A DNA stretch of 64,000 bases from positions 1 through 64,000 of the forward strand of contig JBBQWR010000007.1 in NCBI GenBank assembly GCA_038210495.1, written 5' to 3'. The notes under the pieces were generated by a model. The model searched no databases. It saw nothing but the letters and a program-made list of their open reading frames with translations, and was not told the DNA's origin. Both the position numbers and the translations under genes were made by a program. This DNA comes from Pirellulales bacterium. GTDB taxonomy: Bacteria; Planctomycetota; Planctomycetia; Pirellulales; DATAWG01. Below are positions 1 to 56,550 of the stretch, in pieces (the first letter of the stretch is position 1; each line of letters opens with the position of its first letter).

Positions 1-619
1 GTACGACAACAAGTTCGTGGTCAAGGGAGACGGCGTGACCACGGGCAAGCACGAACTGGAGCTGCGCAAGAAAGGCGCCGGGCCGCTGTACTATAACGCC
101 TATCTGACCTACTTCACGCTCGAAGACCACATCACCCGGGCCGGCCTGGAAGTGAAGGTCAACCGGCAGATCTACAAGCTCACGCGAGACGACAAGACGA
201 CCCAAGTCGCCGGCTCGCGGGGCCAGGTCATCGATCAGCGGGCCGAAAAGTATCGCCGCGCGGAGCTCAAGGACAACGACCTGCTCAAGAGCGGCGACTT
301 GGTCGAAGTGGAACTGGAGATCGACTCGAAGAACGACTACGAGTATCTGATCTTCGAGGACATGAAGGCCGCGGGATTCGAGGCGGTCGAAGTCCGCTCA
401 GGCTACGGCGGCAACGCCCTGGGGGCCTACATGGAGATGCACGACAACCGCACCAGCTTCTTCGTGAGAACGCTAGCCCGGGGCAAGCACAGCGTGGCCT
501 ATCGCCTGCGTGCGGAAATCCCCGGCCGCTACAGCGCCCTGCCGGCCAAAGGCTGGGCGATGTACGCCCCGGAATTGAAGGCCAACTCAGACGAGCTGAA
601 GCTGCGAATCGAGGATTGA
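1..619 (+). CDS. Alpha-2-macroglobulin family protein, C-terminal fragment; the ORF enters from upstream of the window
   Basis: The frame is open from base 2. The C-terminal ~200 aa ([23 protein letters not shown] end, [24 protein letters not shown]) resemble the A2M receptor-binding/C-terminal domain and parallel the C-terminal part of the 2887-aa A2M-like protein at 25249. Stop at 617-619. Confidence 0.5.
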
Positions 620-7112: not shown

Positions 7113-8837
7113 CTACTTTACCGCCACCGGCAACCGATACACCGCATACGAAGGGTTCTCATATTCCGCCTTGGCATTCCATCGCGGCATGTCCGGCAAT
7201 TGTTGCACGATCGCATAGTGCGCACGATATTGACTCGCCAACTCGTTGAGGCGGGCCGGCGTCAATTGCCCCAGCGATTCGCGCCATAGCGTTGGCGGCA
7301 GATCGGGCGACAGACCGTGAATATCGCTCAGCCGCTGAGCCCATTGTTTGATGCTCGCCGCGTCCTGCGGGATGTCTTTCCAGTTCACCACTTCGGCGCG
7401 CTCGGCGTGCCAGCGGAGCGTCGCCGAGAGCCGCGGCGTGAAAAATACCGCGTCCGGCGGCGTGTTGTTTTTGATCCACTCGCATGCTTTCAGCCAATCG
7501 TCGTAATTCATATTTTTGTCCGACCGCGGCACAACCGGCGCGGCGTTGTTTGCAAGCAGCGAAATCGGCAGATGCTGCGTTTGAAAGCCCAAGTCGCCGA
7601 GAACGATCAGCGCGAGCCCTGCGACCCAATAGTGTGCGACGAGCAAGCCGGATTGTCGGGGGCCAATGCGGGCTTGCCCAGCAGCGCCGCCTGTAATCTC
7701 GCTTGACGAAGCACTGCTGGACAAGCCAGTCGTGGCGCCCCATCCTATTTGCGCGAGCCACCACAAGCCCACGAGCGACACGCCCATGGGAATCAGCACA
7801 TCGGTCATGCGGAACCAATAGAATCGCAACAGCGCCGCGGCAATGTCGGGCGACATGTACGACAATCCCACGAGCGCATATCCGGCCAACGTCAGGAGCA
7901 ACGAAGCGCTCGCGAACCATCGCAACCGTCGCTGGGCCGGATCGCTCGGCGCGGCGGTCACCATCGTGAGCCACAGCCCGCAAAGCAATAGATGCCGGCT
8001 GGGAAATCCTTCTCGGAATTTGTCGGCCGATAGATGATGCGGCAGTCGCTTCAGATAAACGTCATTCGCAAGCCGAACCGTCTCCGCATCGACTCCGCGG
8101 TTGAGCGAGAGCGCGAACCACAGCCCTGGCAAAGCCAGTAAGAATCCAGCTGCGAGTCCCGGCGCGATCTTGCGGAGCGGCGGACGAGCATCGCCTGCTC
8201 CGAGCCACGCCACGACCGCGGCCAGCGTCGACCAGCCGCCGACGATGACATGCAGCGAACTGGCCAAGCCGAGAAAGATCCACGCTCGGTTCCACCGCTC
8301 GCGCAGGATCGCTTCCAAAGCCAGAAACACCAGCGCATACGAAAAGCCCTTGGCTTCGATTCCCCCGATGACCCACTCGCCGGCCATGTGGGCATTTTCG
8401 TTAAGCAGAACAAACAAGCCGGCGGTCAACACGGCAAACCACGCTCTGGGTAGCACGACCCAGCTAAGCCGCCGCCAAGTCCAGGCCAGCAGGGCCCAAG
8501 TGACGAGCCGCCCCACCCAGGCCACTTGCTCGAGCGGGAGCCATTTGATCAGCCAGCCGAACGTCCAATAAAATACCTGATGGGCATCGGCCGTATTGAC
8601 GAAAAAGTCGTTCGCGCACCAAGCCGGATTCCAATAATGCTTGGCCTTGGACAAATAGTGACATTCGTTGACATCCGGCACGGGCCAGGCGCCGTGCAAC
8701 GCAAACACGCCAAAGATCAACACAACCTCGGCCGCGGCCAACCAAATCCGCCCGGCGGATGAGACTCGGGCCGGCTGCGAAGCGGAGAGAACGTCATTCA
8801 TGCGGGCGGCGCCGGTTTCGACCAGGAGATTGTGCAA
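7113..8837 (-). CDS. Large polytopic membrane protein, possibly a GT-C-fold glycosyltransferase (ArnT/PMT-like)
   Basis: ~12 predicted hydrophobic helices, an acidic first-loop motif (DVNECHY) and a ~170-aa C-terminal soluble domain. The start codon is uncertain; an internal Met at ~8801 is possible. Confidence 0.5.
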   Translation of the reverse strand: MHNLLVETGAARMNDVLSASQPARVSSAGRIWLAAAEVVLIFGVFALHGAWPVPDVNECHYLSKAKHYWNPAWCANDFFVNTADAHQVFYWTFGWLIKWLPLEQVAWVGRLVTWALLAWTWRRLSWVVLPRAWFAVLTAGLFVLLNENAHMAGEWVIGGIEAKGFSYALVFLALEAILRERWNRAWIFLGLASSLHVIVGGWSTLAAVVAWLGAGDARPPLRKIAPGLAAGFLLALPGLWFALSLNRGVDAETVRLANDVYLKRLPHHLSADKFREGFPSRHLLLCGLWLTMVTAAPSDPAQRRLRWFASASLLLTLAGYALVGLSYMSPDIAAALLRFYWFRMTDVLIPMGVSLVGLWWLAQIGWGATTGLSSSASSSEITGGAAGQARIGPRQSGLLVAHYWVAGLALIVLGDLGFQTQHLPISLLANNAAPVVPRSDKNMNYDDWLKACEWIKNNTPPDAVFFTPRLSATLRWHAERAEVVNWKDIPQDAASIKQWAQRLSDIHGLSPDLPPTLWRESLGQLTPARLNELASQYRAHYAIVQQLPDMPRWNAKAEYENPSYAVYRLPVAVK

Positions 8838-16860: not shown

Positions 16861-17250
16861 GCGACGAAATCAGCGGGCGCACTCGTACATAGCCGCGGCT
16901 ATGTATGGCCGGCAAAGTTTCTCCAGCCGGTCGCGCTTATCTTTCGTCCAACTTGAAGCCGATCGTGGAAATCCGCGAGCTTCTTCCGACCGGCGTTGTT
17001 TCGCCGATTTCGCGGGGCGGTCGTTCCGTTTGTGAAGGGACCGGCGAGTTGAATGCACTCATCCGGTTCATTTTCCGATATGACTACTCGTGGCCATTGC
17101 GGCACGAAAGTGGCGGACGCCTTGTCGCGATGGGTCACTCGCTTTTAACGTTGGGCGATCCCGACGCAACGCATATTTATCGCTGTGACGTGGATAATTT
17201 CGTCCAGCCAGCCGCCCTCTGCATTACGCCAACTCACGGACATCACTTCG

Positions 17251-18708
17251 ATGCAGCGCTTCATTTTAATTTTTGTCGCGTCCGGGTTGATTACATTCGG
17301 TGCTTCTCGATCTCGGGCCGACGACGATCGAGAACCCGCTGAACCTATCGCCCAGAACGAACCGGCGCTGAACGAACCGGCGCTGAACGAACCGGCTCAA
17401 AACGAATCGGCTCAGCTCGACGCCGGTCCCGAGGCGGCCAGCCACTGCGTTACGATCCTAGGCGATGCTCTACAGTCGCTCGCTCTCGAAAAATGGATCG
17501 CGGCCATTGCGGATTGCAAATCCATCGTCGAGCAGTTGGACTTGCAATCAGTTCGAGCCCAATTGAACGATCGCAGCGCCAAAGCCGTTGGCGTCTGGCG
17601 TCTGGCGAGCGCCGAGCGGGCAAAGCTCGTCGTCAAACCAAACTTGCCCATCGCGCCGGAGCTTGCCGCTCTGCGCGACAAAATCCATAAGGCAGTGGCC
17701 AACTACGAGCAGCGGCCATTGAACGCCGCGCAGCAATCTCCTTGGGAGGTCATGCACCGCATCGTGGCCTACGGGATCGGAACCGAAATTCGCCGCGATG
17801 GCCCGACCGGTGACAAAGTCAACGCCATCGGCTGGCTGCTGTGGGGCAATCGCGCGGCGAGCGAGCCGCTGATGGTCGTGTCCGCGGGCCGCCCCCTCTG
17901 CCGCGTCGGACCAGGGCTACAAGGTCATCCGGGGCAATTCCTCGGTATGCTCGCGCAGTCGCAAGTCAGCATTCTCACTCCATTCCAACTCGACGGCCAC
18001 TCGTTCACCGTCGCCGATCTCGTGGAGCAAGAAAAGGCCGACTGCAGCACGCACATCGAATTGACCTTCAAACTGATCGCCCTCTCGTACTATTTGCCGA
18101 GCAACGAAACCTGGATCGCCAAAAATGGCGAGCGATGGTCGATTTCGCGGCTGGTGCAGGAAGAAATTCAACAGCCGCTGCGGACCGGCGCCTGCGGCGG
18201 AACTCATCGGCTGTTTAGCCTAAGCAATGCCTACCGTTATCGCGCAAAGCAAGGCTTACCGATCGACGGTGAATTCAAGCGGGCCGAGAAGTACGTCCGC
18301 GACTACCATCGTTACACGCTGGGCGCGCTGCAAAACCCGGACGGCAGCTTCAGCACCGAATGGTTCACCAAGCCGGCGAACGCGGACGACCCCGCGCGGA
18401 AGATTCAAACGACCGGCCACATGATGGAATGGCTCGCGCAGAGCCTGCCGGACTCCGAGCTGCGCGATCCGCGCGCGATCAAGACCATCGATTTTCTGGC
18501 GACGCAACTGTCGCAGGACCCGGTGAAGGATTGGAGCGTTGGCCCGCTCGGCCACGCCCTGCATGCCCTGATTATTTACGATCAGCGAGCGTTCGGCGAA
18601 GCCAATCCAGCGATCGCATCTTCCGTCGCCAAGGCGAATCGACCGGCCAACATGGCAACGCGGCCCCTGTATCCGCCGGTCCCGCGGAGCGGCGTCGACC
18701 AATGGTAG
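17251..18708 (+). CDS. Secreted hypothetical protein with an N-terminal NEPAL pentapeptide repeat
   Basis: Signal peptide MQRFILIFVASGLITFGASRSRA. A 15-bp tandem repeat at 17355-17415 encodes NEPALNEPALNEPAQNESAQ. The remainder has no confident domain assignment. Confidence 0.5.
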   Translation: MQRFILIFVASGLITFGASRSRADDDREPAEPIAQNEPALNEPALNEPAQNESAQLDAGPEAASHCVTILGDALQSLALEKWIAAIADCKSIVEQLDLQSVRAQLNDRSAKAVGVWRLASAERAKLVVKPNLPIAPELAALRDKIHKAVANYEQRPLNAAQQSPWEVMHRIVAYGIGTEIRRDGPTGDKVNAIGWLLWGNRAASEPLMVVSAGRPLCRVGPGLQGHPGQFLGMLAQSQVSILTPFQLDGHSFTVADLVEQEKADCSTHIELTFKLIALSYYLPSNETWIAKNGERWSISRLVQEEIQQPLRTGACGGTHRLFSLSNAYRYRAKQGLPIDGEFKRAEKYVRDYHRYTLGALQNPDGSFSTEWFTKPANADDPARKIQTTGHMMEWLAQSLPDSELRDPRAIKTIDFLATQLSQDPVKDWSVGPLGHALHALIIYDQRAFGEANPAIASSVAKANRPANMATRPLYPPVPRSGVDQW

Positions 18709-25248: not shown

Positions 25249-28200
25249 ATGAAACGCATGTTCTCGGTAGCGGCGGCCGTTCTTTCGATCACCGTCGGCC
25301 TCGGCGTGACGTTGCGATTGGTCGGCGCAGACGCGAAAGAGGCTCCGGCTCCGCCCGAGACAAAAAAGCCGGCCGCGGCGGCCGACGGCGGCCTGTTCGC
25401 CGTGCCGCATGTGCCGACGAAAATCAGCGAACTGCTGGCGGATCACAAATACGCCGACGCGATTGCGGCCATCGATGCCGCTCGCAAAGACGCCAAAGCG
25501 AAAGATGCCCCCTGGGACTATCTGGCCTATCTCAAGGGCCGGGCCCTGCATCTGGATGGCCAGTACGACGCGGCCGTCAAGCAGTTCACCGCGATGGAAA
25601 AGGAATTTCCAGGCAGCCCCTGGGCTCGCCGCGCTCGATTCGGCAAAGCCGTGTCGCTGGCTCGCAAGGGTGATTTTCGCGCGGCCGAGCTCATCTACCG
25701 CACGGAGGTCGAGTATCTGCTCTCGTCGGCCCGCAAGCAGGAGATCGCCGACCTGTATCTGGAATTCGCCGACGCCTATTTCAAGCCGAAGGACGAAATC
25801 CAGCACAAGCCGGATTACCAAAAAGCGCTTGAGTTCTATCTGAAGGCCTTGGAGGTCGGCCCGCAGAACGATCGCCGGGCCGAGATCGAACTGCAGACGG
25901 CCCGCAGCTATCAATTGCTCAATCAACTGCCCGAGGCGGCTAAGCGATTTAGCCAGTTCATCAAGGACCATCCCGGCCTGCCGGCCGTGATCGAGGCCCG
26001 ATTCCGCTTGGGCGAGGTTCAGCTAGCGCAGAGCCAACAGCAAGAGGCTCGCCGCACTTGGCAAGATCTGCTTGCCGCGCATGCCGATTCGAAGTCCGAG
26101 CGAATTCCCGAGGCCGCATATCGCTTGGCGTTTACTTACAACCTACCGAATCCCCAGACCGATGAAGAACTCAGCCTCGGCATAAGCACGCTCGAATCGT
26201 TTATTAAAAATTATCCGGATCACAAGCTCGCGTCGCAGGCCCATCTGCTCATCGCCAATAGCTACATCGCCCGCGGCCGGTACGAAGACGCGGTCAAGTC
26301 GTTGATTCGGTTCCTGGCCGACAAGCGTTACGCCGATCGCGAGGAAGTGGCCGACGCCCGGAATCTGCTCGGCCGTTCGTACCAACTCCAGCGAAAGTTC
26401 ACCGCCGCGCTCGAGGCTTGGCGCGATTATCTGACCAAGCATCCCTCGCATCACGCTTGGAGCGACGTGCAGCGCGAGATCGTCAACACGGAATACCTGA
26501 TGGCCGACGACAAGGCCCAGGCGAAGCAATACGACGAAGCCCGCAAGCTGTGGAACGATTTTCTCGCCAAATATCCGCTCGATCCCCGCGATCCGCAGAT
26601 TCTTTATCTGTTCGGCTGGATGAACTACCAGCAGGAAAGATTTCCCGAGGCGAACAGCGACTGGCGTCGGCTGGCGTCAAAATATCCGGGCACTGAGCCG
26701 GCCCAGCGCGGCCAACTCATGATCGCCGCGACGCTCGAAGGCAAGCTCGGCAAGCTGGAAGAGGCGCTCCAGGAATACAAAAAGGTCCAGCCGGGCAATT
26801 GCCAAAATCTGGCCCAAATGGCCATCAACCGGCTCACGGCCAAGAGCATGGCGATCGTCACCGAGCGGGTATTTCGCAGCGACGAGACTCCCAAGATTAA
26901 GCTCACCAGCCGCAACATCGAGTCGGTCACCGTCCGGGCCTACAAGGTCGATCTTGAAACCTATTTCCGCAAGATGCACGTCGTCCAAGGGGTCGAGGGA
27001 CTCGACATCGCCCTGATCGATCCGGACAAAACGTTCGAATTCAAGATCCCCAAATACAATGAGTATCAGCAGGTCGAGAACGAGATCGAGCTACCGCTGT
27101 TCAAAGACATAGCCAAGGATGCGGCCAACGCCGACGCCAAAGACGCCGGCAAGCTGACGCCCTCTGGCGCCTGGGCCGTCACGGTGAGCAGCAAGACGCT
27201 CGAAGCCACAACGCTAGTATTGCAAAGTGACCTGGACCTGATCGTCAAAAGCTCGCGCGATGAGCTGTTCGTGTTCGCCGAAAACATGCGGACCGGAAAA
27301 CCCTGGCCGGGCGTAAAACTCTTACTCTCCAATGGCCAGCAGGTGTTTGGCGAAGTCGCCTGCGGCGCCGATGGCGTGCTCAAGCAGTCGTTCAAGGAGC
27401 TCAAGGGAGCCGGCGACGTGCGGGTCTTCGCGCTGGCCGACGGGGGCGTGGCGTCGAATGTCGTTAGTCTACAGGGGGTTGGCGTCGCTCAAGGGCTCGT
27501 CGACAAGGGTTACATCTACACCGATCGGCCCGCCTATCGAGCCGGGCAGATTGTGCATGTTCGCGGCATTCTGCGGCGGGCGGTGGACGACAACTACACG
27601 GTCGAAAAGGGGAAGAAGGAGACCGTCGAGGTCTACGATCCGCGCAGCCGGCTGATCTGGCAGGAAGAGACCAAGCTGTCGGACGTCGGGAGTCTGCACA
27701 TGTATTTTACGCTCCCGGCGACCAGTCCCGTGGGGCCGTATCGCGTGGTGGTCCACGATGACGAGGGGCACAGCCACGCGGGCGGGTTCACGGTGCACGA
27801 GTATCAGATCGACCCGGTGCGGCTGTCGGTCGATATCGATCGCCACGTGTTCTATCGGGGGGAAGAGATCGAAGGGACGATTCGGGCCGCGTTCTACTAC
27901 GGGGCGCCGCTCGCCGACCGCGAAGTGACCTATAAGCTGGCCGACGGCCGCGTGAATAGCGCCAAGACCGACGACAAGGGAGAGGTGCATTTCAAGCTGC
28001 CGACCCGCGACTTCCGCGAGACGCAGACGCTACCGCTGGTCGTCACGCTGGCCGAGCGGAATCTGACGACCGTGCAGAATTTCTTCCTGGCGACGCAAGG
28101 GTTCGCGATCAGCATGAGCACAGTCCGGCCGGTGTATGTGGCCGGCGAAACGTTCGAGGTGACGCTCAAGGCGATGGACGCGGAGAACAAGCCACTCGCT

Positions 28201-31200
28201 CAAAAACTCACGCTCAATGTGCTTGAGCGGACGGTCGTAGATGGCAAGGTCGGCGAGAAGCAGGTCGATACGTTTGAAGTGGCGACCGACGCCAAGGACG
28301 GAACGGCGCGTAAGACGCTCAAGCTCGAAAAGGGCGCCGAATATATCTTGCGAGCCGAAGGCATCGATCGGTTCAAGAACCCGGTGGTCGGCCAGTATCG
28401 GATCAAGATTTCCGATGAGAACGACAGCGTGCGGCTGCGCATCTTGGCCGATCGGCACACGTACAAAGTCGGTGACGCGGCCGACGTGCAACTGCACTGG
28501 CGCGAGAAGCCGGCCCTGGCGCTGGTCACGTTCCAAGGCGCGCGAGTGCTCGATTATCGGCTCGTGCAACTGGAGACCGGGGCGAACAAGCTGGCGATTC
28601 CCATGTCGGCCAAGCTCGCGCCGAATTTTGATCTCACGGTCGCGGTCATGACCGACGCCGGGCGACTGGAAAAGGGGCTAGGGGCAGGTGATGGGACTAG
28701 GGAGAAGAAGGCAGGCGGAAACGATGCAGTTAAGTTACCGGAGAGTCCGCTTAAGGTGGCGAAGGCGCCGGCGAAGCGATTTCATGAGGCTTCGAGTCCG
28801 TTCAGCGTCGAGCGGCAACTTACGCTGAAGCTTGAAACCAAGCGGAAGGAGGGGGCGAAGGGCGCCATTCGGCCGGGCGAAGAGGTGGAACTGGTCATCG
28901 TCGCCACCGATCCGCAAGGCAAGCCGGTCGCGGCCGAGGTCAGCCTTGGGATGGTCGAACAGGCGCTCTTGAATATGTTCCCGCCGAACGTGCCGGCGAT
29001 CGATGAATTTTTCAAAGGCGTGCCCCGGCAATCGGCGCTTCACACTTCGACCAGTGTCGTATTTGGCTATTTCCCCGCAACGCATCCGATCGATCGGCAT
29101 TTGCTTTCGGAGGTCCAGCGGCAAGAGATTGCGAAGGAGGAGGCGGAGAGCACGGCAGTGCGCACGCGCCTATTACTGCAGGCGCAACAACAGGCGGCGA
29201 ACCAATCCGATGCAACTCCCGCGCTCGTCATTCAAGAGGAAGCAGCAGAACAGTTGCTGGGCTCGGAACAGCCGAGAGCACAAGCCGGCGCTCTCTTTAC
29301 GGACGGAAGCACCGGGATTCAAGCCGGCGGGATCGCAGGCTCTGGCGGCCTTGGCAATGTTGACTTAGCTTTAGACGGGGTTCACGCCTATGGATGGACT
29401 GGCGACCAACATAACTCTGGCGAGGCGGCCGCCAATGAAGATCGAACTACCGCGGCCGTCGCTTACACGGATCAGGCGGCGATTCCCTTTCCGGTTAAGC
29501 CCGGAATTCAATATCCAACTCACGCTCAGGGGCGGACGTTGACGCGGGATCGCATGCGTTATAGTCAACTTCAAGTCGATCCAAGCGGCGGCGTCGGAGG
29601 CGGGGCTTCTGCCGGTGGATGGGCAGCAAATTCAAATAGGCCAGCAGCTTCGACGCCAATTGGCCGGACGCCTCAACTTGGGGCCGTCCCGCATATGAAT
29701 CGACTGTTCGACATGCCCCCGCAGCTTGGCCGAACGAGTGGCGAATTGGAATATGCGTTGAATGGCGGCGATTTGAGCGACAACTACGCCGTCGTTGCTC
29801 AAGACGGTAGCCAGCGGAATTGGTCGTTCGGCGCCAACTGGGCGCTTGGAGACGGCGGTCGCAAGGAATTGGCCGCCAAACGTGTCGCGGAATTGCAAAC
29901 GGCGATCGCCAATAAGGCGCTCGTCACGCCGCAGCGCGGGTTGGTCGAAACGGCTTATTGGAATCCGGCGATTGTCACCGACGACAAAGGCCGGGCGAGC
30001 GTCACGATCTCGATGCCCGATCAATCGACGGCCTGGAAGCTATCGGCCAAGGGAATCACGGCCGATACGCTGGCCGGCGAAGGGGAATTGGATCTGGTAG
30101 TGAAAAAGGACCTGTTCGGCGAATTGAAACTGCCGACGGCGTTCACCGACGGCGACGACGCCCAGATTCTCGCGACGATCCACAACGGCCTGTTGGACAA
30201 GGGTCAGATCGAGGTCACGCTCAAGACGACGATGGGCGGCAAGTCGACCGAGGAGAAAAAGACGATCGACGTCACGGCCACAGGGTTGTCCGAGTTGACG
30301 TTCCCGCTCGCCGTTCGCCGCCCGACCGCGGATGACAAGGCCGAGAAGAAGGTCGACGCCAAGAAAGAGGACAACCCGGCCGACGACAGCCAGGTGACGA
30401 TAGAGTTATCGGTCTCCTCGGGCGCCGAGCGCGACGTGGTTCGCCGCGTCGTGCCGATTCATCCTTACGGCATGTCGGTCTACGCGACGGCCGGCGGCGC
30501 CGCGTCCTCCGACACCACCGTGTGGGTCGAGGCGCCCAAGGACATGCCGCTGGCGGCCCCAAGCCTCCAGATTCTCGTCGGGCCGACGATTCAGCAGAGC
30601 CTCTTGGACGTGCTGTTTGGAACCGCGCCAACCTGTGAGATTGATGTGCTCCGGTCTGCCTCGGCGCTGGATTCGCCGGCCAGCGATCTGATGGCCGCGC
30701 TGGCTCTGCAAAAGCTGATCAATACGACCCGCGACGCTGGCAACCCGCAAGCCCGGTTGCTCGACGATCGGGTCCGCTCGGCAATCAGCCTGCTTGTCTC
30801 ATCGCAACTGGACGATGGCAGTTGGAGTTGGGGCGGCCAAGGCCTTCAAGCACAGGCCGCTCAAGGTCATCGCCTGGGGACGGCCCGCGTGATTTGGGCG
30901 CTTTCGCTGGCCAAATCGGCCGGCTACAAACTGCCCGGCGAGCAGTTCGAGAAGGGGCTGACGTTCCTGCAAAGCCAAATCGCGACCACTGCCGAGACCG
31001 ACTACGAAACCAAGGCCGTGCTCTTGCACGCCCTGGCCGCGGCGGGGCGCGGTGACTTCACGCTGGCCAATCGGCTGTATCGCAATCGCCCGGCGCTCAC
31101 GACCGCCGCGCTCGTGTATCTCTCGCTGGCGCTAGCGGAGATGGACCACCAGCCGATGGCCGAGGATCTTTTGAAACTGCTCGATCAGCGGAATTTGGAT

Positions 31201-33912
31201 GACGAAGACGCCACGGGCAAGCTCGGCTCGCTCGCTTGGAGCCGATCGTCGGCCGAGATTCGGTCTCTCTATGCGCTGGCGCTGGAACAAGTGCTGGCCG
31301 ATAGCCCCAAGCTCAAACTGCAAGTCGATTGGCTGATGACCCATCGCACGGGCCATCGCTGGTCGCCCGACAAAGCCACCGGGCCGGCCACGCTCGCGCT
31401 CGCCCGCTGGTTCGCCAAGACCCAGTTCGACGACGAGCATTACAAGCTGACCGTCACGGTCAACGACGTGGAAGTGAAGACGCTTGACATCGACAAGAAT
31501 TCGGGCGGTCTGGTCGTCGATGTGCCCGCCCACGCGCTAGTCGCCGGCAAGCAGCGGATTCACTTCGGGCTCATCGGCCGCGGCCGATATACGTTCCAAG
31601 CGATTCTGAGCGGCTTCGTGGATGCCGACAAACTGAAGGGCACGATGCAAGGAGTCGTCGTCAACCGGTACTATGAGCCGGCCCCGATCGAGCTCGACGG
31701 CAAGGAAATTCCTCGTGGATTCGGCGTCCTGCAAGGCTCGTACACGTCGTTCCGCAATCCGCTCACGCAACTGGCCGTCGGCAAGCGGGGACATGTCGAA
31801 CTCCAGATCGATCGCCCGTACGAACCGACGATGCGAGAAGAATACTGGGTCGTTACCGAGCCCCTGCCCAGCGGAGTAACCGTGATCGAAAACTCGATCA
31901 GCGGCAATTTCGAGCGGTTCGAGCTCGGCGCCGGCGCGATCACCTTCTATCTCCGGTCGTCGACGACATCGAGCCGGATTCACTTCGACGTCCACGGCTA
32001 TCTGCCGGGCCAATATCGCGCGGCGCCCACCGTGGTCCGCGACGCCTATCGGCTCGACAAGATGGTCGTGGCCGCCGCGACAAAACTGACCGTGCTGGCC
32101 CTCAACGCCAAGAGCGCCGACGCCTATCGCCTCACGCCGCAGGAATTGTATGAGCTGGGCAAGCGATACTTCGAGAAGGCGGATTACAAAGCGGCCGGAG
32201 AGCATCTCACCGAGCTAATGGCCAAGTGGAACATCCAGCCGGAGGTGTACAAGGAAACGGCCCGGATGCTCTTGGACATCCACTTGCAAACCGGCCCGCC
32301 GGCGCAGGTCGTGCATTACTTCGAGATCATCAAGGAGAAGTGGCCGGAGCTCGAATTCCCGTTCGAGAAAATCGTCAAGGTGGCGACCGCTTATCACGAG
32401 ATGGGCGAGTACGAGCGGAGCTACCTGGTCTTCCGCGCCACGGCCGAGAGCAGTTTTCTGCGCGAAGCGGCCGTCGGCGGGTTCTTGGAATCGCAGGGTG
32501 AATTTCTGCGGAGCATCGCGTTCATGAACCGGCTGCTGGCCGAATATCCCCCCGAGCCGTATGTGGTGGCGGCGACGTTCGCCCTCTCGCAGCGGGTCTA
32601 TGGCATGGCGCCCAAGGCGGCCGATGACCCAAAACTCCGCGAGAAGAAGATCAACAAGGTCGATCTGATCGGGCAGGCCGTCGCTATGCTCGATAATTTT
32701 CTGTCCGATTACCCCGACGACCCGGCCGCCGATCAGGCCTCGTTCTCGCTAGCCAATGCCCTGTTGGAACTTAAGTCGTACAAGGAAGTGATCGCCCGGG
32801 CGACCAAATTCGCCGCCCGGTATCCCAAGAGCGATTATCTCGATAGTTTCTGGTACATCGTGGCCTACGGTCATTTCGCCTTGGGGGAGCATGAGCAGGC
32901 CCTGACGATGGCCAAGAAGGTGGCCGAGGCCAAGCGGATCGATAAATTATCGGGCCGCGAGACCGAAAGCCCCAACAAATGGGAAGCGATCTACATCATG
33001 GGCCAGGTGTACCACAGCCTGGGGAAGGCGGCCGAGGCGATCGTCGAATATACGCGAGTCGCCGATCGGTTCGCCGACGCGAAGGAGGCCATCGCCTATT
33101 TCACGCGCAAGGAAATCACATTGCCCGAAGTGACGGTGATCCGCCCGGCTGACGCTGCCGAGGTGGAACTCAAATTCCGCAATGTCGCCACCGCCGACGT
33201 GAAACTGTACCGAATCGACCTGATGAAGTTCGGCCTGCTGAAGCGTAATCTGGCCGGGATCACGCAGATCAATCTGGCGGGGATTCGACCGTTCTTCGAG
33301 AGCAAGCTCGAGCTCGGCGATGGGAAGGATTTCCGCGACCGCACGCACAAGATCGCGCTGCCGATCAAGGAAGAAGGCGCCTATCTGATCGTCTGCCGCG
33401 GCGGCGATCTATATGCCAGCGGGCTGGTGCTGCTCAGCCCGCTGTCAGTCGAAGTGCAAGAAGACGCCTCGGCCGGGCAGGTGCGCGTCACGGTGAAGAA
33501 CGTGCTCAAGGACACCTACATCTCGGACGTCCAGGCCAAGGTGATCGGCAGCCGGAACGAGGACTTCGTGTCCGGCGAAACGGATCTCCGCGGCGTGTTC
33601 GTGGCCCAAGGGGTGCGCGGCGCGAGCACGGTGATCGCCCAAGCGGACAGCGGGCGTTATGCGTTCTTCCGCGGCAAGACCGAGCTTGGCCCACCGGAAC
33701 CGGCCGCATCGCCGCCGGCTCCGGCCAAGCAGTCCGAACAAACCGACAATCAGATGGAAAAGCCCCAGCAAGGCGAGAATCGCCGGGGCGACAATGGCCT
33801 GCTCGACAATCTGCAACGGGGCAACAACTCGTTGCAAGACTTCAACAACGACAAGCTGCAGAATTTCTATAAGCAGAACAAGAGTGGCGTGAAGGCGAAG
33901 GAGGCGTATTGA
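25249..33912 (+). CDS. Giant secreted TPR / alpha-2-macroglobulin / TPR fusion protein (2887 aa)
   Basis: Signal peptide. N-terminal TPR repeats (YbgF-like), then MG-type beta-sandwich repeats, then an A2M/TED-like region (LVSSQLDDGSWSWGGQG alpha-alpha toroid motif) and receptor-binding-like domain (cf. the 1..619 fragment). A second TPR block and a C-terminal beta-rich domain follow. No obvious CxEQ thioester motif was seen. Low-complexity Gln/Ala/Gly insert at ~29150-29800. Confidence 0.8.
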   Translation: MKRMFSVAAAVLSITVGLGVTLRLVGADAKEAPAPPETKKPAAAADGGLFAVPHVPTKISELLADHKYADAIAAIDAARKDAKAKDAPWDYLAYLKGRALHLDGQYDAAVKQFTAMEKEFPGSPWARRARFGKAVSLARKGDFRAAELIYRTEVEYLLSSARKQEIADLYLEFADAYFKPKDEIQHKPDYQKALEFYLKALEVGPQNDRRAEIELQTARSYQLLNQLPEAAKRFSQFIKDHPGLPAVIEARFRLGEVQLAQSQQQEARRTWQDLLAAHADSKSERIPEAAYRLAFTYNLPNPQTDEELSLGISTLESFIKNYPDHKLASQAHLLIANSYIARGRYEDAVKSLIRFLADKRYADREEVADARNLLGRSYQLQRKFTAALEAWRDYLTKHPSHHAWSDVQREIVNTEYLMADDKAQAKQYDEARKLWNDFLAKYPLDPRDPQILYLFGWMNYQQERFPEANSDWRRLASKYPGTEPAQRGQLMIAATLEGKLGKLEEALQEYKKVQPGNCQNLAQMAINRLTAKSMAIVTERVFRSDETPKIKLTSRNIESVTVRAYKVDLETYFRKMHVVQGVEGLDIALIDPDKTFEFKIPKYNEYQQVENEIELPLFKDIAKDAANADAKDAGKLTPSGAWAVTVSSKTLEATTLVLQSDLDLIVKSSRDELFVFAENMRTGKPWPGVKLLLSNGQQVFGEVACGADGVLKQSFKELKGAGDVRVFALADGGVASNVVSLQGVGVAQGLVDKGYIYTDRPAYRAGQIVHVRGILRRAVDDNYTVEKGKKETVEVYDPRSRLIWQEETKLSDVGSLHMYFTLPATSPVGPYRVVVHDDEGHSHAGGFTVHEYQIDPVRLSVDIDRHVFYRGEEIEGTIRAAFYYGAPLADREVTYKLADGRVNSAKTDDKGEVHFKLPTRDFRETQTLPLVVTLAERNLTTVQNFFLATQGFAISMSTVRPVYVAGETFEVTLKAMDAENKPLAQKLTLNVLERTVVDGKVGEKQVDTFEVATDAKDGTARKTLKLEKGAEYILRAEGIDRFKNPVVGQYRIKISDENDSVRLRILADRHTYKVGDAADVQLHWREKPALALVTFQGARVLDYRLVQLETGANKLAIPMSAKLAPNFDLTVAVMTDAGRLEKGLGAGDGTREKKAGGNDAVKLPESPLKVAKAPAKRFHEASSPFSVERQLTLKLETKRKEGAKGAIRPGEEVELVIVATDPQGKPVAAEVSLGMVEQALLNMFPPNVPAIDEFFKGVPRQSALHTSTSVVFGYFPATHPIDRHLLSEVQRQEIAKEEAESTAVRTRLLLQAQQQAANQSDATPALVIQEEAAEQLLGSEQPRAQAGALFTDGSTGIQAGGIAGSGGLGNVDLALDGVHAYGWTGDQHNSGEAAANEDRTTAAVAYTDQAAIPFPVKPGIQYPTHAQGRTLTRDRMRYSQLQVDPSGGVGGGASAGGWAANSNRPAASTPIGRTPQLGAVPHMNRLFDMPPQLGRTSGELEYALNGGDLSDNYAVVAQDGSQRNWSFGANWALGDGGRKELAAKRVAELQTAIANKALVTPQRGLVETAYWNPAIVTDDKGRASVTISMPDQSTAWKLSAKGITADTLAGEGELDLVVKKDLFGELKLPTAFTDGDDAQILATIHNGLLDKGQIEVTLKTTMGGKSTEEKKTIDVTATGLSELTFPLAVRRPTADDKAEKKVDAKKEDNPADDSQVTIELSVSSGAERDVVRRVVPIHPYGMSVYATAGGAASSDTTVWVEAPKDMPLAAPSLQILVGPTIQQSLLDVLFGTAPTCEIDVLRSASALDSPASDLMAALALQKLINTTRDAGNPQARLLDDRVRSAISLLVSSQLDDGSWSWGGQGLQAQAAQGHRLGTARVIWALSLAKSAGYKLPGEQFEKGLTFLQSQIATTAETDYETKAVLLHALAAAGRGDFTLANRLYRNRPALTTAALVYLSLALAEMDHQPMAEDLLKLLDQRNLDDEDATGKLGSLAWSRSSAEIRSLYALALEQVLADSPKLKLQVDWLMTHRTGHRWSPDKATGPATLALARWFAKTQFDDEHYKLTVTVNDVEVKTLDIDKNSGGLVVDVPAHALVAGKQRIHFGLIGRGRYTFQAILSGFVDADKLKGTMQGVVVNRYYEPAPIELDGKEIPRGFGVLQGSYTSFRNPLTQLAVGKRGHVELQIDRPYEPTMREEYWVVTEPLPSGVTVIENSISGNFERFELGAGAITFYLRSSTTSSRIHFDVHGYLPGQYRAAPTVVRDAYRLDKMVVAAATKLTVLALNAKSADAYRLTPQELYELGKRYFEKADYKAAGEHLTELMAKWNIQPEVYKETARMLLDIHLQTGPPAQVVHYFEIIKEKWPELEFPFEKIVKVATAYHEMGEYERSYLVFRATAESSFLREAAVGGFLESQGEFLRSIAFMNRLLAEYPPEPYVVAATFALSQRVYGMAPKAADDPKLREKKINKVDLIGQAVAMLDNFLSDYPDDPAADQASFSLANALLELKSYKEVIARATKFAARYPKSDYLDSFWYIVAYGHFALGEHEQALTMAKKVAEAKRIDKLSGRETESPNKWEAIYIMGQVYHSLGKAAEAIVEYTRVADRFADAKEAIAYFTRKEITLPEVTVIRPADAAEVELKFRNVATADVKLYRIDLMKFGLLKRNLAGITQINLAGIRPFFESKLELGDGKDFRDRTHKIALPIKEEGAYLIVCRGGDLYASGLVLLSPLSVEVQEDASAGQVRVTVKNVLKDTYISDVQAKVIGSRNEDFVSGETDLRGVFVAQGVRGASTVIAQADSGRYAFFRGKTELGPPEPAASPPAPAKQSEQTDNQMEKPQQGENRRGDNGLLDNLQRGNNSLQDFNNDKLQNFYKQNKSGVKAKEAY

Positions 33913-47421: not shown

Positions 47422-47652
47422 ATGAGTTCCAAGACGAAATTGCTGCTTGTCGGCTGGTCGCTTGCCCTGGCGGGGCTGGCAATCGTGGTTTGGCAGACGA
47501 CCTCCACCGCCGGCGGCGGATCGGATCGCATCTTCAACGTCGGCGTCGCGGCCCTGATCGTGGGAAATGTGCTGCGCGTGTATGCCAGATATCGGCCGAG
47601 AAAACCGAAACCTGTCGCTCCCAAAACTGGTGACCCGTCGCGGTCTTCGTAG
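47422..47652 (+). CDS. Small membrane protein (76 aa), hypothetical
   Basis: Two hydrophobic segments; ORF only. Confidence 0.3.
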   Translation: MSSKTKLLLVGWSLALAGLAIVVWQTTSTAGGGSDRIFNVGVAALIVGNVLRVYARYRPRKPKPVAPKTGDPSRSS

Positions 47653-47700
47653 CACGGACGCCTTGCCCGTGCAAGGACGCCGTCAACTTGTTTGCTATTG

Positions 47701-48741
47701 CTAACGCAGCAAAAAAAACGTCGTCGCGCTGATTCCCAGCGCCGTCAAACCCGCGATTGCGGCCAGGATCCAAAACAGGCTGTGATTCGCCCGGGCGAGC
47801 GCGAGCGAGGCGATCGTCACGCCTGCCTGAGCGAACAACATACTGTAAAAGAACTTGCGACTTCGCTCCCGATGGATGTCGGATTCGACCCCGCTGCGGG
47901 CGACTTGAAGCTCGTAAAGCTGGGCCACCGTCCGATTGTATTGCGACTCGCGGCGACAGCGACGAGCATCGTAATCGAGCGCCGCGACCTCGATTTCCGA
48001 CGATAGCTTGTCGGCTCCGGCCGTCGTTCCGGCGTCGGCGGATCGCGGCAAGCTGGTTAGGAAACCTCGAAGCTGGCCGATCGCCGAATTGGTCGGCTCG
48101 CAAGCGGCGGAAAATTCGACCGAATTGTGTTCGACCGTGGCCGTCACTTCTTCCACGCGCTCGGGCGTGACGGCTCGCACGAGGTGGGCCAATTCGGCCT
48201 CCGTCCGCTGTTTGGGCATGAGCGCCAGGGCAGTTCGCAGATCGTCGAACTCCACGCCGTCCGGCAGTGGCTTGCTGGTCTCGAAGGGGAGCGATTGACC
48301 GGCCAAAAATTGGAGCGTTCCATTCTTCTGGGCGCTCGTCAGCCACTGGGCCAGTTGAGCCGGTGGCGACTTCGAATAATCGCCATTGGAATTTTTTGAT
48401 TCGGCGATCAGTGCCCAGTGCTGCGACAAGCTGCGCAGCGCATCGGCCAATCGGTCGGGCGTCGGACGATCGACGTGCGTCAAACTGCGCAGCAGCGTGA
48501 CCGTGCCGGCGAGCGAAGTCTCTCGCAGCCGTTTCGATTGATAGAATGACCATTGATCGCCGGCCTTGGCCTGATGCTGACCGGCCAGCGAGCGATAGTA
48601 CATGGACTGAGTCATCTCGCTCGATGAAATCCCGGCCAGCGCCGTCGCCAGCACGGTCATGACGATCGGCGTGATTTGCACGACATGGCCCCACAGAGTA
48701 GTCGGCTGAGCTGCGTGCGTGGTCGTGTCGGGTATATTCAT
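47701..48741 (-). CDS. Hypothetical protein with two C-terminal transmembrane helices
   Basis: Start chosen at MNIPDTT (ATG 48741). Mostly a soluble alpha-helical region followed by FFYSMLFAQAGVTIASLALARANHSLFWILAAIAGLTALGISATTFFLL. Confidence 0.5.
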   Translation of the reverse strand: MNIPDTTTHAAQPTTLWGHVVQITPIVMTVLATALAGISSSEMTQSMYYRSLAGQHQAKAGDQWSFYQSKRLRETSLAGTVTLLRSLTHVDRPTPDRLADALRSLSQHWALIAESKNSNGDYSKSPPAQLAQWLTSAQKNGTLQFLAGQSLPFETSKPLPDGVEFDDLRTALALMPKQRTEAELAHLVRAVTPERVEEVTATVEHNSVEFSAACEPTNSAIGQLRGFLTSLPRSADAGTTAGADKLSSEIEVAALDYDARRCRRESQYNRTVAQLYELQVARSGVESDIHRERSRKFFYSMLFAQAGVTIASLALARANHSLFWILAAIAGLTALGISATTFFLLR

Positions 48742-49321
48742 GACGATCGCCGGAATTGGTCGAAGGTGCGCGAGTTCGCTTTTGCGGCTCGATGGAGAAT
48801 GCCCGCAAATCGGCGGGATAGTACCGAAATGCACGTTTCACGGCAAGAGAGGCGACCTGGAAATGACCGGTTGCCAAATGCCAAGTCGCACGCTGCATGA
48901 CACGGTCGGCGAGGTTAACAAAAGGGGGGAGTAAATTTGGCCCGTTGGGCAGCGGCGAGAGGCGGGCCTGGAGCCGCGAAGCGGCGCCACATAGCCGCGG
49001 CAGCCTGCTGCGGAGTACATGGATGGCCAGTAAGCTGTCGCTGCCCAATGGATTACGATAGCGGGAGATTTGAAGTCGCCCATAGCGAAACCTCTGCTCT
49101 GCGGTAGCCGCTCGGTACTCCGCAGCAGGATGCCGCGGATATGGGGCCGAGCCTTCGGCTTGGCCGGAACGTTCGCGTCTCGTCGATTTACCGACCCTTG
49201 AAGGCCGATCCGTCTCCGTGGTAAGGTTGAGGGATTTTACTGGCCGCCGGAGGGCGCAGGGGGCGGGACAACAGGCGAACGGAAATGCTGACGGAAACAC
49301 GGTCTTAGCTAAGGATTCATC

Positions 49322-52300
49322 GTGCCGCGTCGTAGCGACATTCATAAGATTTTGCTGATTGGGTCGGGGCCGATCGTGATTGGTCAGGCCTGCGAGTTCG
49401 ATTATTCGGGCACGCAGGCGTGCAAGGCCTTGCGCGAAGAGGGTTACGAGGTCGTGCTCGTGAATTCCAATCCGGCCACGATCATGACCGATCCCGAGAT
49501 GGCCGACCGCACATATATCGAGCCGCTCACTTGGGAGACCGTCGCCCAGGTCATTGAAGTCGAGCGGCCCGATGCGCTGCTGCCGACGCTGGGCGGGCAG
49601 ACGGGCCTCAATTTGGCGATGGATCTGGCGCGCAACGGCGTTCTGGAAAAATACGGCGTCGAGATGATCGGCGCTCGGGCCGATGTCATCGCCAAGGCCG
49701 AGGAGCGCGAGCAGTTCAAGCAGGCGATGGAAAAGATCGGGCTCGAGGTCTGCCGCGGCCGGACGGTGCATAGCCTGACCGCCGCGCGGCAGACGTTGAA
49801 AGAAATCGGCCTGCCGTGCGTCATTCGCCCCAGCTTTACGATGGGGGGCAGCGGGTCCAGCATGGCCTACAATCGCGAGGAATTCGACGCCGTCGTGTCG
49901 CGCGGGCTGGACGCCTCGCCGATCGGCGAAGTGCTTGTCGAAGAGTCGATCGCGGGCTGGAAAGAATACGAAATGGAGGTGATGCGCGACGCCGACGACA
50001 ATTGCGTCATCATCTGCTCGATCGAAAACTTCGACCCGGTGGGCGTTCACACAGGCGATTCGATCACGGTCGCGCCGGCCCAAACGCTCACGGACAAGGA
50101 ATATCAGCGGATGCGCGACGCCTCGCTGGCCGTGATCCGCGAGATTGGCGTCGAGACGGGAGGTTCGAATATCCAGTTCGCCGTCGATCCGAAGACGGGC
50201 CGGATGATCGTGATCGAGATGAACCCGCGCGTGAGTCGCTCCAGCGCCCTGGCGTCCAAAGCCACTGGGTTTCCGATCGCCAAGATCGCCGCCAAGTTGG
50301 CCGTCGGCTATCGGCTGCATGAGCTGCCGAACGATATTACCCGCGAAACTCGGGCCTGCTTCGAGCCGACGATCGACTATGTCGTGACGAAGATTCCGCG
50401 GTTCGCGTTCGAAAAATTTCCCGAGGCCGATAGCCGGCTGACCACGCAGATGAAGAGCGTCGGCGAGACGATGGCGATCGGCCGGACGTTTAAGGAGTCG
50501 TTTCAAAAGGCGCTGCGGGGACTTGAGGTCGGCAGTTTTGGATTTGGTTGCGATAACAAAGACTTGTGGGGCACGCCGCAGCAGCCGCTGATGGACGAGA
50601 TTCGCGTGAAGCTGGCCACGCCCAACGCCGATCGGCCCTGGTATATCCGCTATGCGTTCAAAGCGGGCATGACGGCCGCCGAAATTCATGCCCTGACGCA
50701 GATCGATCCTTGGTTCCTCGACGAGCTCCAGCAGATCGTCGAGCTGGAAGAAGAGCTTCGCCGCTATAGCGACCCGAGCCAGATCGACGACCGGCTACTG
50801 CGGAAGGCGAAGCAGTTCGGCTTTTCGGATCGGCAGCTTTGCACGATTTGGAATTCCAGCGAGATGGATTTTCGCAACCATCGCAAGATGCGGGGAATCG
50901 CCGCGACGTTCAAGTCGGTCGACACGTGCGCCGCCGAGTTCGAGGCCTACACCCCTTATTTCTATTCGACCTACGAGCAGGAAGACGAGACGCCGCGCAA
51001 GCCCGAGGGGGGCAAGCGGATCATGATCCTCGGCGGCGGGCCCAATCGAATCGGCCAGGGGATCGAGTTCGATTATTGCTGCTGCCATGCGAGCTTCGCC
51101 CTCCGCGAGCTGGGCATCGAGTCGGTGATGGTCAACAGCAACCCGGAAACGGTGAGCACCGACTACGACACGAGCGATCTGCTATTCTTCGAGCCGCTGA
51201 CGACCGAGGACGTGCTGAACATCGTCGATCGCGTGCAGCCGGATGGCGTGATCGTGCAGTTCGGCGGCCAAACGCCGCTCAATCTATCGCGGGCACTGTC
51301 GAATGCCGGCGTGCCGATCATCGGGACCAGCGTCGACACGATCGAAGACGCGGAGGATCGCGAGAAGTTTCAGCGACTCTTGCACCGACTTGGGCTGCGG
51401 CAGCCGGCGAACGGCATCGCGCGGACAATGAACGAAGCCCGGGCCGAGGCGGTGAAGATCGGCTATCCGAATCTCGTGCGACCGAGTTTCGTGCTCGGCG
51501 GCCGGGCGATGGAAATCTGCTACGATCAGACTCAACTCGAGCGGTTCGTGGCCGAGGCGTTTGTCGTCGCTCAGGGACAGCCCGTGCTGATCGACCGGTT
51601 TCTGGAGGACGCGATCGAGGTGGACGTCGACGCGATCTGCGACGGCCAGACGGTGATCGTCGCGGGGATCATGGAGCATATCGAAGAGGCGGGCGTTCAT
51701 TCGGGCGACTCGGCCTGTGCGATTCCGCCATACAGCTTGACCGGCCCGATTCTCAATGAGATTCGCGAGGCGACGCACAAGATGGCCCGGCAACTTAAGG
51801 TCGTCGGACTGATGAACGTGCAATATGCCATCAAGCGCGAAGAGGGAAAGCAAGTGCTGTATGTGCTCGAAGTGAATCCTCGGGCCAGCCGCACGGCGCC
51901 GTTTGTCGCGAAGGCCACGGGCATGCCGATCGCGCGGGTGGCGGCCAAGGTGATGGCCGGCGTCTCGCTGGCCGAGCAAGGCTACACGTCCGACCCGATT
52001 CCGCTCTATGTGTCGGTCAAGGAGAGCGTGTTCCCGTTCAGCAAGTTCGCGGGCGTGGATATCGTGCTGGGGCCCGAGATGCGATCGACCGGCGAGGTAA
52101 TGGGGATCAGCGAGCGGTTCTCGATCGCATTCGCCAAGAGCCAATTGGCGGCGGGCATCATACTCCCCAAGGAAGGGCGGATTTTCATCAGCGTCGCTTC
52201 CAAGGGAGCCAAAGAGCATATGGTCGCGCTCGCGCCGCGGTTGGTGAAGCTCGGGTTCGAGTTGTGCGCCACCGACGGCACCGCTCGGGCAATCGAGTCG

Positions 52301-52603
52301 GTGGGCATCAAAGTCGAGCGCGTGAAGAAGTTGCAAGAGGGGCATCCTAACCTGATCGACATGCTGATCGATGGCCGGGTGCAGATGATCATGAACACGC
52401 CGCGGGGCAAGGGCGCCCGAACGGACGAGGGCCGCATTCGGGCCGCCTCGGTCAGCCACGGCGTTCCCTGCATCACGACGATTCCGGCCGCCGAGGCGTG
52501 CGTCAAGGCCATGGAGGCGCTGCTCGAAGAATCGATGGGCGTCCAGGCGCTTCAGGACCGGGTGATCAAACAGCCGGCAAGAGAGAATCTAACGAACGTG
52601 TGA
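49322..52603 (+). CDS. carB: Carbamoyl-phosphate synthase large subunit
   Basis: [58 protein letters not shown]... with duplicated ATP-grasp halves and a C-terminal MGS-like domain. No carA is adjacent upstream. Confidence 0.95.
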
Positions 52604-56452: not shown

Positions 56453-56500
56453 AGCGTGAAGCGTGAAGCGTGAAGCGTGGGGCGTGGGGCGTGGGGCGTG
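56440..56500. repeat. Heptanucleotide tandem array: GTGAAGC x5 then GTGGGGC x3; contains the argH stop codon and lies ~50 nt upstream of the next gene
   Basis: gcgtgaagcgtgaagcgtgaagcgtgaagcgtgaagcgtggggcgtggggcgtggggcgtg, read directly from the sequence. Confidence 0.85.
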
Positions 56501-56550
56501 AAAAAGGCGGGTGTTCGGCGAAGACGGCTGGCGCAAGAGGGGATGCAATT

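Follow-up and report, generated by a model that had tools for sequence, protein, structure and literature searches.

A giant alpha-2-macroglobulin of Pirellulales with duplicated TPR modules and no thioester motif: a possible non-covalent protease trap

What does an alpha-2-macroglobulin (A2M) do when its thioester motif is missing and its core is embedded between two blocks of tetratricopeptide repeats (TPRs)? This question is raised by a gene at 25249..33912 (+) in a 64,000-nucleotide stretch of Pirellulales DNA (contig JBBQWR010000007.1 of assembly GCA_038210495.1, positions 1 to 64,000; hereafter the window), which an earlier note, made from the sequence alone, had described as encoding a 2887-aa TPR/A2M/TPR protein. 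Bacterial A2Ms of Type II have a bait region and no CxEQ thioester motif, and one of them, MagD, traps protease non-covalently after bait cleavage (PMC5764988). The way in which thioester-less Type II A2Ms keep hold of a protease is described as not yet clear (PMC5764988). We found that the Pirellulales protein belongs to a large and conserved family that combines loss of the thioester motif with a hypervariable insert at the bait position and with a duplicated TPR-containing module at its two ends, and we tentatively suggest that it may act as a non-covalent trap.

The gene is a single uninterrupted open reading frame (ORF) of 2,887 codons, complete with its stop codon, and the translated protein is identical to an NCBI entry (P0001) that sits on a 139,549-bp contig. 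All features of the gene given below lie on the + strand. Domain searches agreed with the fusion described earlier, finding Pfam MG2, bMG3, A2M_BRD and A2M together with TPR families, and NCBIfam TIGR02795 and TIGR03302. From the N-terminus, the order is a YbgF-like TPR block, a bMG3/MG2 array of macroglobulin (MG) domains, A2M_BRD, an insert of ~270 aa, A2M, a TED-like helical domain, a C-terminal MG-like domain, a BamD-like TPR block, two beta domains and a conserved tail. The N-terminal TPR block (aa ~55-530; 25411..26838; TIGR02795, TPR_16 and TPR_6) is YbgF/CpoB-like, as had been proposed: TIGR02795, the NCBIfam model for YbgF-like TPRs, matches 8 stretches of it at 1.1e-40, Pfam TPR matches cover aa ~95-515, and a profile of the family searched against the PDB matched YbgF (2xev, 3e-11) and CpoB (6g5s).

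The TPR block is followed by an MG1-like beta-sandwich (aa 535-655; 26851..27213) with a variable loop at 601-640 and a mean pairwise identity of 68%, which aligns with the first of the two C-terminal beta domains. Next come bMG3 and MG2 (aa 660-847; 27226..27789), both above the Pfam cut-off (bMG3 at 660-741, 2.7e-10; MG2 at 753-847, 1e-21). In hhalign the bMG3-MG2-MG3 region aligned with residues 285-527 of E. coli YfhM at a probability of 93.5%, and PDB matches for the MG array included A2ML1, A2M, Sa-A2M and CD109. Further MG-type beta domains occupy aa ~851-1060 (27799..28428; mean identity 60%), where MG4 and bMG5 matches are sub-threshold in the window protein and MG3 and MG4 matches are recorded in orthologs. 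The bait-region domain A2M_BRD (PF07703; aa 1063-1243; 28435..28977) was matched over its full profile (1-140/140) at 3.5e-10. The A2M domain (PF00207; aa 1568-1658; 29950..30222), which begins with ETAYWNP, was likewise matched in full (1-92/92) at 1.5e-14, and PDB matches to complement C5 and YfhM cover this stretch. On its MG, BRD and A2M domains we assign the 2887-aa protein to the A2M superfamily.

The earlier note had failed to find a CxEQ motif by eye, and this holds: CxEQ is absent from the 2887-aa protein, which has four cysteines only (518, 705, 1796 and 2716), none of them in a C.EQ context. One of the four, C1796, lies in the sequence APT-C1796-E-I-D (C-E-I-D at 30634..30645), 138 aa past the end of the A2M domain. 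The corresponding distance is 130 aa for C1187 of YfhM, which is part of a CLEQ motif, and 120 aa in P0378, a distant 2,698-aa family member with the full TPR-A2M-TPR architecture. The cysteine is kept in 38/40 aligned homologs, mostly as C-Q-x-[ED], and CxEQ occurs in 0/40. A canonical Cys-Gln thioester cannot form when Glu or Asp replaces Gln at i+3. Among 52 distant representatives one has CxEQ at this site, and most other distant members have no Cys there. P0378 carries GGCTEQT no more than 2 alignment columns from C1796. We read C1796, on the strength of these alignments, as the relic of a former thioester cysteine. P0378 combines the full architecture with GGCTEQT at the equivalent site, and the family therefore descends from a thioester-bearing A2M and has lost the bond in most lineages. 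A non-canonical thioester, formed with Gln at i+1 or by some other chemistry, is unlikely: position i+1 is E and position i+3 is D in the window protein, and i+1 is G in some orthologs.

The relic cysteine falls at the start of a TED-like, all-helical domain (aa ~1790-2060; 30616..31428) delineated from an AlphaFold2 model, hhalign and Foldseek. The window protein gave no Pfam TED match. The model was built from a 5-sequence alignment, has a mean predicted local distance difference test (pLDDT) score of 53.9 and a predicted template modelling (pTM) score of 0.31, and was used for secondary structure and as a source of weak Foldseek support. It places 11 helices at aa 1808-2058, with local pLDDT up to ~86. 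The hhalign alignment is collinear with YfhM from TED to MG10 and weak (E 8e-4, probability 24%), with 'SQLDDGSWSW' opposite 'MQRDNGGFALW'. Foldseek searches with this low-confidence model matched A2ML1 (9e-6), protease-activated ECAM (2.3e-5), CD109 and C5 over 500-640 columns. Past the TED-like domain is a region that is all-beta in the model (aa ~2061-2285; 31429..32103), read as a CUB-like domain plus a bMG10-like C-terminal MG domain. It contains the motif EPLPSGVTVIEN, which resembles 'LLPAGLELEN' of YfhM. Pfam bMG10 (PF17973) is found at the same position in the orthologs P0106 and P0378, and no such match rises above threshold in the 2887-aa protein itself. Its TED and C-terminal MG domains are therefore assigned as probable, not proven.

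The most divergent part of the protein lies in the slot where other A2Ms carry their bait. With the slot mapped by Pfam coordinates, the distance from the end of PF07703 to the start of PF00207 is 325 aa in the window protein (1243 to 1568) vs 64 aa in YfhM (905 to ~969), a bait position that is by this measure enlarged about five-fold relative to ECAM. When the BRD-insert-A2M region was aligned with YfhM by hhalign, only the bMG3-MG2 part aligned. Most of the gap is taken up by a hypervariable insert (aa 1299-1567; 29143..29949), made up of a variable core (1299-1519) and a semi-conserved C-terminal part (1520-1567). Identity across the gap is 57% at aa 1244-1298, 18% and essentially unalignable at 1299-1519, and 32% at 1520-1567. 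The insert is the only long unalignable segment of the protein (18% vs 57-73% elsewhere), and its length ranges from 104 to 461 aa with a median of 239 (108 homologs). Its composition across the family is rich in Gly (12.3% vs 6.7%) and enriched in Asn, with Lys, Tyr and Ile depleted, all of which fits the low-complexity insert of the earlier note. The bait of ECAM is largely disordered, and its residues 923-942 are missing from the cleaved structure (PMC4498604). Position, disorder-like composition and hypervariability of the insert are thus those expected of a bait region; what is unusual in this clade is how large the insert is.

No Pfam family matched the window's own insert even at E<=1. 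In the same slot, the orthologs P0004, P0012 and P0030 carry PATR repeats (28.9 bits, above cut-off), and P0038, P0040, P0017 and P0043 carry sub-threshold Secretin_N-like pieces ('LDGLDVLVLRG..DVE.V'); 'W[DE][DE]VG…LV[IV]SQTQ' motifs are also found among ortholog insert fragments. These fragments suggest that the slot is a hot-spot at which modules are gained and lost. At another site, the 1134-1177 loop, the 4,167-aa homolog P0083 has an additional insertion of ~1,057 aa.

The two ends of the protein proved to be related to each other. The C-terminal TPR block (aa ~2292-2622; 32122..33114) is BamD/YfiO-like (YfiO 2.6e-17; TIGR03302 2.1e-28, the latter at aa ~2475-2612), and the model gives it ~18 helices with pLDDT 70-87. 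The two beta domains behind it (aa 2626-2812; 33124..33684) are, by BLASTP and hhalign, duplicates of MG1 and of the first part of the MG domain that follows it. When the N-terminal 611 aa were compared by BLASTP with the C-terminal 529 aa, a collinear alignment of 253 aa resulted (E 2e-9), which leads from the last TPRs directly into the first beta domain, with AINRLTAKSMAIVTERVFRSDETPKIKLTSRNIESVTVRAYKVDL opposite AIAYFTRKEITLPEVTVIRPADAAEVELKFRNVATADVKLYRIDL. hhalign of the two corresponding sub-alignments of the family extended the match to aa 214-711 against 2375-2784 (98.8%, E 1.1e-16, 394 columns), a span that takes in MG1, several of the TPRs before it and the first part of the MG domain after it. 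The architecture is therefore [TPR-MG1-MG]-A2M core-[TPR-MG1'-MG'], in which the two TPR blocks are part of a duplicated module. Nowhere in the protein is conservation higher than in the C-terminal copy (73% for the first beta domain, 67% for the second and 65% for the TPR block), and this module is therefore no passenger and is functionally required.

Past a Pro-rich linker the protein ends in a conserved tail (aa 2846-2887; 33784..33909) that reads LL.NLQ.GN..LQ...L.N.YK....GVKAKEAY in near-invariant alignment columns. Across the family this tail of ~40 aa follows the pattern LL..LQ..N..[IL]Q..Q...L...Y....GV.A..A[FY]. Its last residue is F, Y or W in 94/120 homologs, and a hidden Markov model (HMM) of the tail matches many distant members too. 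A function as docking or sorting peptide is possible. At the other end, the N-terminus resembles a signal peptide (25249..25329), with MKR, a hydrophobic stretch and VGA/DA, and has no lipobox Cys; 114/120 homologs have an N-terminal hydrophobic stretch and 3/120 a lipobox-like motif. The 2887-aa protein is therefore probably exported, and either soluble or held by protein contacts.

The TPR-A2M-TPR architecture, which the earlier note had seen in one sequence, is widely distributed. A whole-protein search returned more than 120 full-length homologs of 2,700-3,100 aa with 51-62% identity and the same Pfam domain set, and the taxon names given for them are all planctomycetal (Pirellulales, Planctomycetia, Planctomycetaceae or Planctomycetota). 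Scanning the GTDB species, each represented by one genome, gave 208 encoding stretches, mostly matching from residue ~50 to the end, with two copies in some metagenome-assembled genomes (MAGs) and with Blastopirellula and Rhodopirellula bins among the matches. The best 80 of the 208, for which taxon labels were read, carry planctomycete MAG labels (Pirellulales, Pirellulaceae, Thermoguttaceae, Planctomycetaceae, Planctomycetia and Planctomycetota) except for one Candidatus Nealsonbacteria bin. That exception is a 6.8-kb contig (JABMRB010000660.1) encoding a 52%-identical member, and is most likely a mis-binned planctomycete contig.

More distant relatives were found by a HMMER search with the MG7-TED-C-terminal MG core (aa 1560-2290), which gave 450 cluster representatives at E<=1e-30. 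We checked the module order of those at least 2,400 aa long with per-module HMMs built from the family alignment, and all 52 of 52, down to ~29% core identity, have the N-terminal TPRs, MG1-6, the core, the C-terminal TPRs and the C-terminal beta domains in the same order. Within a 40-sequence sample of the family, mean pairwise identity is 57-73% for every structured module. This whole-length conservation across hundreds of genomes makes it well supported that the family is real, ancient and constrained. In databases its members go by the labels 'tetratricopeptide repeat protein', 'MG2 domain-containing protein' and 'alpha-2-macroglobulin', and one is entered at NCBI as 'outer membrane protein assembly factor BamD', which is a wrong label and an annotation artefact.

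Five related loci showed no conserved gene neighbourhood, the flanking genes differing at each locus. Because the neighbours differ in every locus examined, we regard the TPR-A2M-TPR gene as one that stands alone. On a 4.9-Mb contig the gene for a distant member, P0338, is flanked on one side by a TonB-dependent receptor gene together with VWA/DUF58 (Bat-like) genes and on the other by a gene for a 948-aa ECF-sigma/CarboxypepD_reg/AhpC-TSA fusion. P0338 may be a sign that the family extends beyond Pirellulales.

Set beside Type II proteins such as MagD of P. aeruginosa and YfaS of E. coli, the 2887-aa protein shares the A2M fold, the MG array, the bait region, the lack of CxEQ and, presumptively, a TED and a periplasmic location. 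MagD, which we compared by description, differs in being encoded in a six-gene magABCDEF operon, in needing MagB for stability and in acting within a multi-protein Mag complex (PMC5764988), whereas the gene studied here stands alone without conserved synteny; its product is far larger, with two TPR-MG-MG modules and a ~325-aa gap at the bait position. Genes resembling those for the partners MagA, B, C, E and F were not found within the window. By the sequence definition (bait, no CxEQ) the protein is of Type II, and by the genomic one (a mag operon) it is not. The Type I proteins ECAM/YfhM of E. coli and Sa-A2M of Salmonella have the same order of MG array, BRD, bait, A2M, TED and C-terminal MG, the last two being probable in the 2887-aa protein, and both the bait slot and the Cys position of YfhM coincide with those of the 2887-aa protein. 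YfhM nevertheless has CLEQ at C1187, a lipoprotein signal (…LAGC) and an adjacent pbpC, whereas the 2887-aa protein has CEID instead, lacks both the lipobox and a neighbouring pbpC, and carries ~1,100 extra residues in its TPR and duplicated MG regions. The absence of an adjacent pbpC, noted earlier, was upheld: no penicillin-binding protein (PBP) or transglycosylase gene lies beside either A2M gene inside the window, and no PBP gene lies anywhere in its 64 kb (the region upstream of the second A2M gene being outside it). Lacking thioester, lipobox and pbpC, the 2887-aa protein is by its sequence and setting not of Type I. The likeness to CpoB/YbgF and BamD/YfiO lies in the TPRs, the N-terminal block being of YbgF type and the C-terminal one of BamD type. 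CpoB and BamD are much smaller proteins (their NCBIfam models have ~240-260 positions), while the TPRs here are arms of a 2,887-aa A2M.

A second A2M-family gene runs off the start of the window. The C-terminal 205 aa that remain (2..619, +) contain bMG10 (PF17973, 1.5e-24), the domain with which bacterial A2Ms end, and the A2M-like C-terminus reported earlier as ending at 619 is thus real. A search with this fragment returned 1,081 homologs at E<=1e-20, of which the best 120 are all short gene calls, and the bMG10 tail recurs in protein databases as 'proteins' of 229, 243, 265, 269, 329 and 345 aa. The ortholog on a 2.5-Mb contig (L081) is a single A2M gene of ~2,000 aa that frameshifts have broken into five calls, with a frame change at '…GELAP/RLVKYIL…'. 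In L081:3472-9690 and L082:3408-9690 the thioester-type paralog is split into 4-5 consecutive short genes. We considered that bMG10 might exist as a stand-alone gene, as the 229-aa homologs would suggest, and rejected this: there is a 1-nt frameshift in L081, and the lengths fit partial calls at conserved internal start codons.

The L081 ortholog has a canonical thioester motif, YPYGCTEQT, and no PBP gene nearby. The window fragment is 65-76% identical to its orthologs, and the truncated gene is most likely of the canonical thioester type; in this, by orthology, it resembles Type I. Its orthology to a CTEQ-bearing A2M makes it probable that the genome has one covalent and one thioester-less macroglobulin. 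In a related genome, the thioester-type paralog has a helical N-terminal region with an above-threshold TPR match just before the first MG domain, and a TPR-to-MG1 start may be ancestral for planctomycete A2Ms.

How, then, might the 2887-aa protein work? We favour, as a tentative reading, that it is a periplasmic protease trap of a non-covalent, Type-II-like kind with an enlarged bait, and that its TPR modules serve in docking, in trap closure or in both. It would be an extracytoplasmic, most likely periplasmic, A2M-type protein, one in which no thioester can form. A protease would cut the long, exposed and presumably disordered insert at the bait position; the cut would let the MG ring and TED arm change conformation; and the protease would then be held non-covalently, as with MagD. 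The two TPR-MG-MG end modules would stand in for the lipid anchor, the Mag-type partners and the covalent tether, either as docking sites for envelope partners or as aids to trap closure, or in both ways. The coexistence of a canonical thioester paralog is consistent with a division of labour.

Several points weigh against the protein being a trap. Monomeric A2Ms that lose their thioester can lose trapping, as in the Sa-A2M thioester mutant, which was unable to trap protease (PMC5764988). Mag partners and conserved neighbours are missing here, and the TED and C-terminal MG assignments come from weak profile scores and the low-confidence model (mean pLDDT 53.9). In distant family members the gap between MG1-6 and the core is only a few tens to ~100 aa, so that the very large bait characterises one clade, not the family. 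Our literature search returned no publication on TPR-A2M fusions or planctomycete A2Ms. Finally, a structural scaffold would explain equally well why the TPR and terminal beta modules are so highly conserved. Such an envelope scaffold or adaptor, in which the A2M core would be a large rigid frame, the TPR-MG-MG modules would bind envelope partners (candidates being cell-wall, outer-membrane or secretion machinery) and the insert would be a flexible linker with no trapping involved, is the main rival, and we consider it somewhat unlikely. It would account for the loss of the thioester and for the fact that the best-conserved parts are the terminal TPR and beta modules and not the TED. CpoB/YbgF and BamD, to which the TPR blocks are similar, act as protein-protein adaptors in the periplasm, and the aromatic-ended tail could be a docking peptide. 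The shortness of the insert in distant members, and the PATR and Secretin_N-like fragments in some orthologs, are as in a permissive loop. A mere frame, however, would not need BRD, A2M, TED-like and C-terminal MG-like domains all kept at 57-64% identity. The variable region lies precisely at the bait slot, and no conserved gene neighbours suggest a partner for an adaptor.

Assembly into an oligomeric hollow container, like CAGE or the tetrameric eukaryotic A2M, with the TPR and duplicated MG modules mediating self-assembly, seems improbable. CAGE subunits are ~2,300 aa long and consist of alpha-helical domains and MG-like beta-sandwiches (Tetrahymena I7MLD7; 10.1101/2025.09.22.677704), and in bacteria CAGE homologs have signal peptides and occur most often in Planctomycetota and Verrucomicrobiota (10.1101/2025.09.22.677704). 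The 2887-aa protein is similarly giant (>2,000 aa) and mixes helical domains with MG-like beta-sandwiches, and its pseudo-symmetric TPR-MG-MG ends could form subunit interfaces. CAGE1 is, however, reported to be without Pfam-detectable domains (10.1101/2025.09.22.677704), whereas the 2887-aa protein has strong Pfam A2M-family and TPR matches, which makes CAGE a design analogue at most. No CAGE chain (PDB 11KS/11KT) appeared among the PDB sequence matches at E<=10, in the profile search or in the Foldseek top 50, the presence of these entries in the searched set being unconfirmed. A rather improbable variant of trapping is a pseudo-symmetric macroglobulin cage made of a single chain, in which the duplicated TPR-MG1-MG2 head would supply the walls that eukaryotic A2Ms gain by oligomerising. 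If so, entrapment would be purely non-covalent, with neither thioester nor Mag partners; the enlarged, fast-evolving, module-swapping bait would serve as a decoy that diversifies in response to proteases from competitors or predators; and together with the canonical thioester paralog the protein would form a two-tier innate defence of the large planctomycete periplasm. There is a negligible chance that the protein is an artefact, whether because separate TPR and A2M genes were joined by mis-assembly or mis-calling or because the gene is a decaying pseudogene. Its unusual length, lost thioester and low-complexity insert might suggest as much, but the gene is one open frame; the full-length homologs, more than 120, are independent and come from different assemblies and sources; 208 stretches are found in species-representative genomes; and the 52/52 long distant representatives are collinear, with 57-73% identity along all domains of the family. 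These comparative data exclude an assembly or gene-calling artefact.

The fold belongs to the known bacterial family of A2M protease traps, and the architecture is, as far as our literature search goes, undescribed. Thioester-less, without operon partners, with a duplicated TPR-MG-MG module and with one lineage in which CTEQ is intact, the family offers a natural series for the question of how proteases are held, and it could also be used to study the evolution of bait regions. Its members are probably among the largest conserved extracytoplasmic proteins of Pirellulales, an order whose envelope biology is poorly understood, and the database names 'tetratricopeptide repeat protein' and 'BamD' misdescribe them. 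Until a function is demonstrated, the practical consequences will be modest.

Within the window, the ATG of the 2887-aa ORF is preceded at 6 nt by a Shine-Dalgarno-like GGAG. Upstream lies a divergent aldo/keto reductase gene and downstream a convergent truB, with a weak terminator-like hairpin between the stop codon of the 2887-aa gene and truB. The other large ORFs are housekeeping genes: ffh, carB, mutL, argH, truB itself and genes for a Clp-type ATPase, Cys/Met pyridoxal phosphate enzymes and a LarA-like protein. A 1,051-aa ORF at 47534-50689 (-) has no Pfam match and is partly antisense to carB at 49322-52603 (+); long spurious ORFs are common in DNA of 61% GC. Three further ORFs are uncharacterised: one at 17185-18708 (+) encoding 507 aa with no Pfam match, one at 7113-8837 (-) encoding a 574-aa protein with DUF6798, and one at 56470-58911 (+) encoding an 813-aa HEAT-repeat protein.

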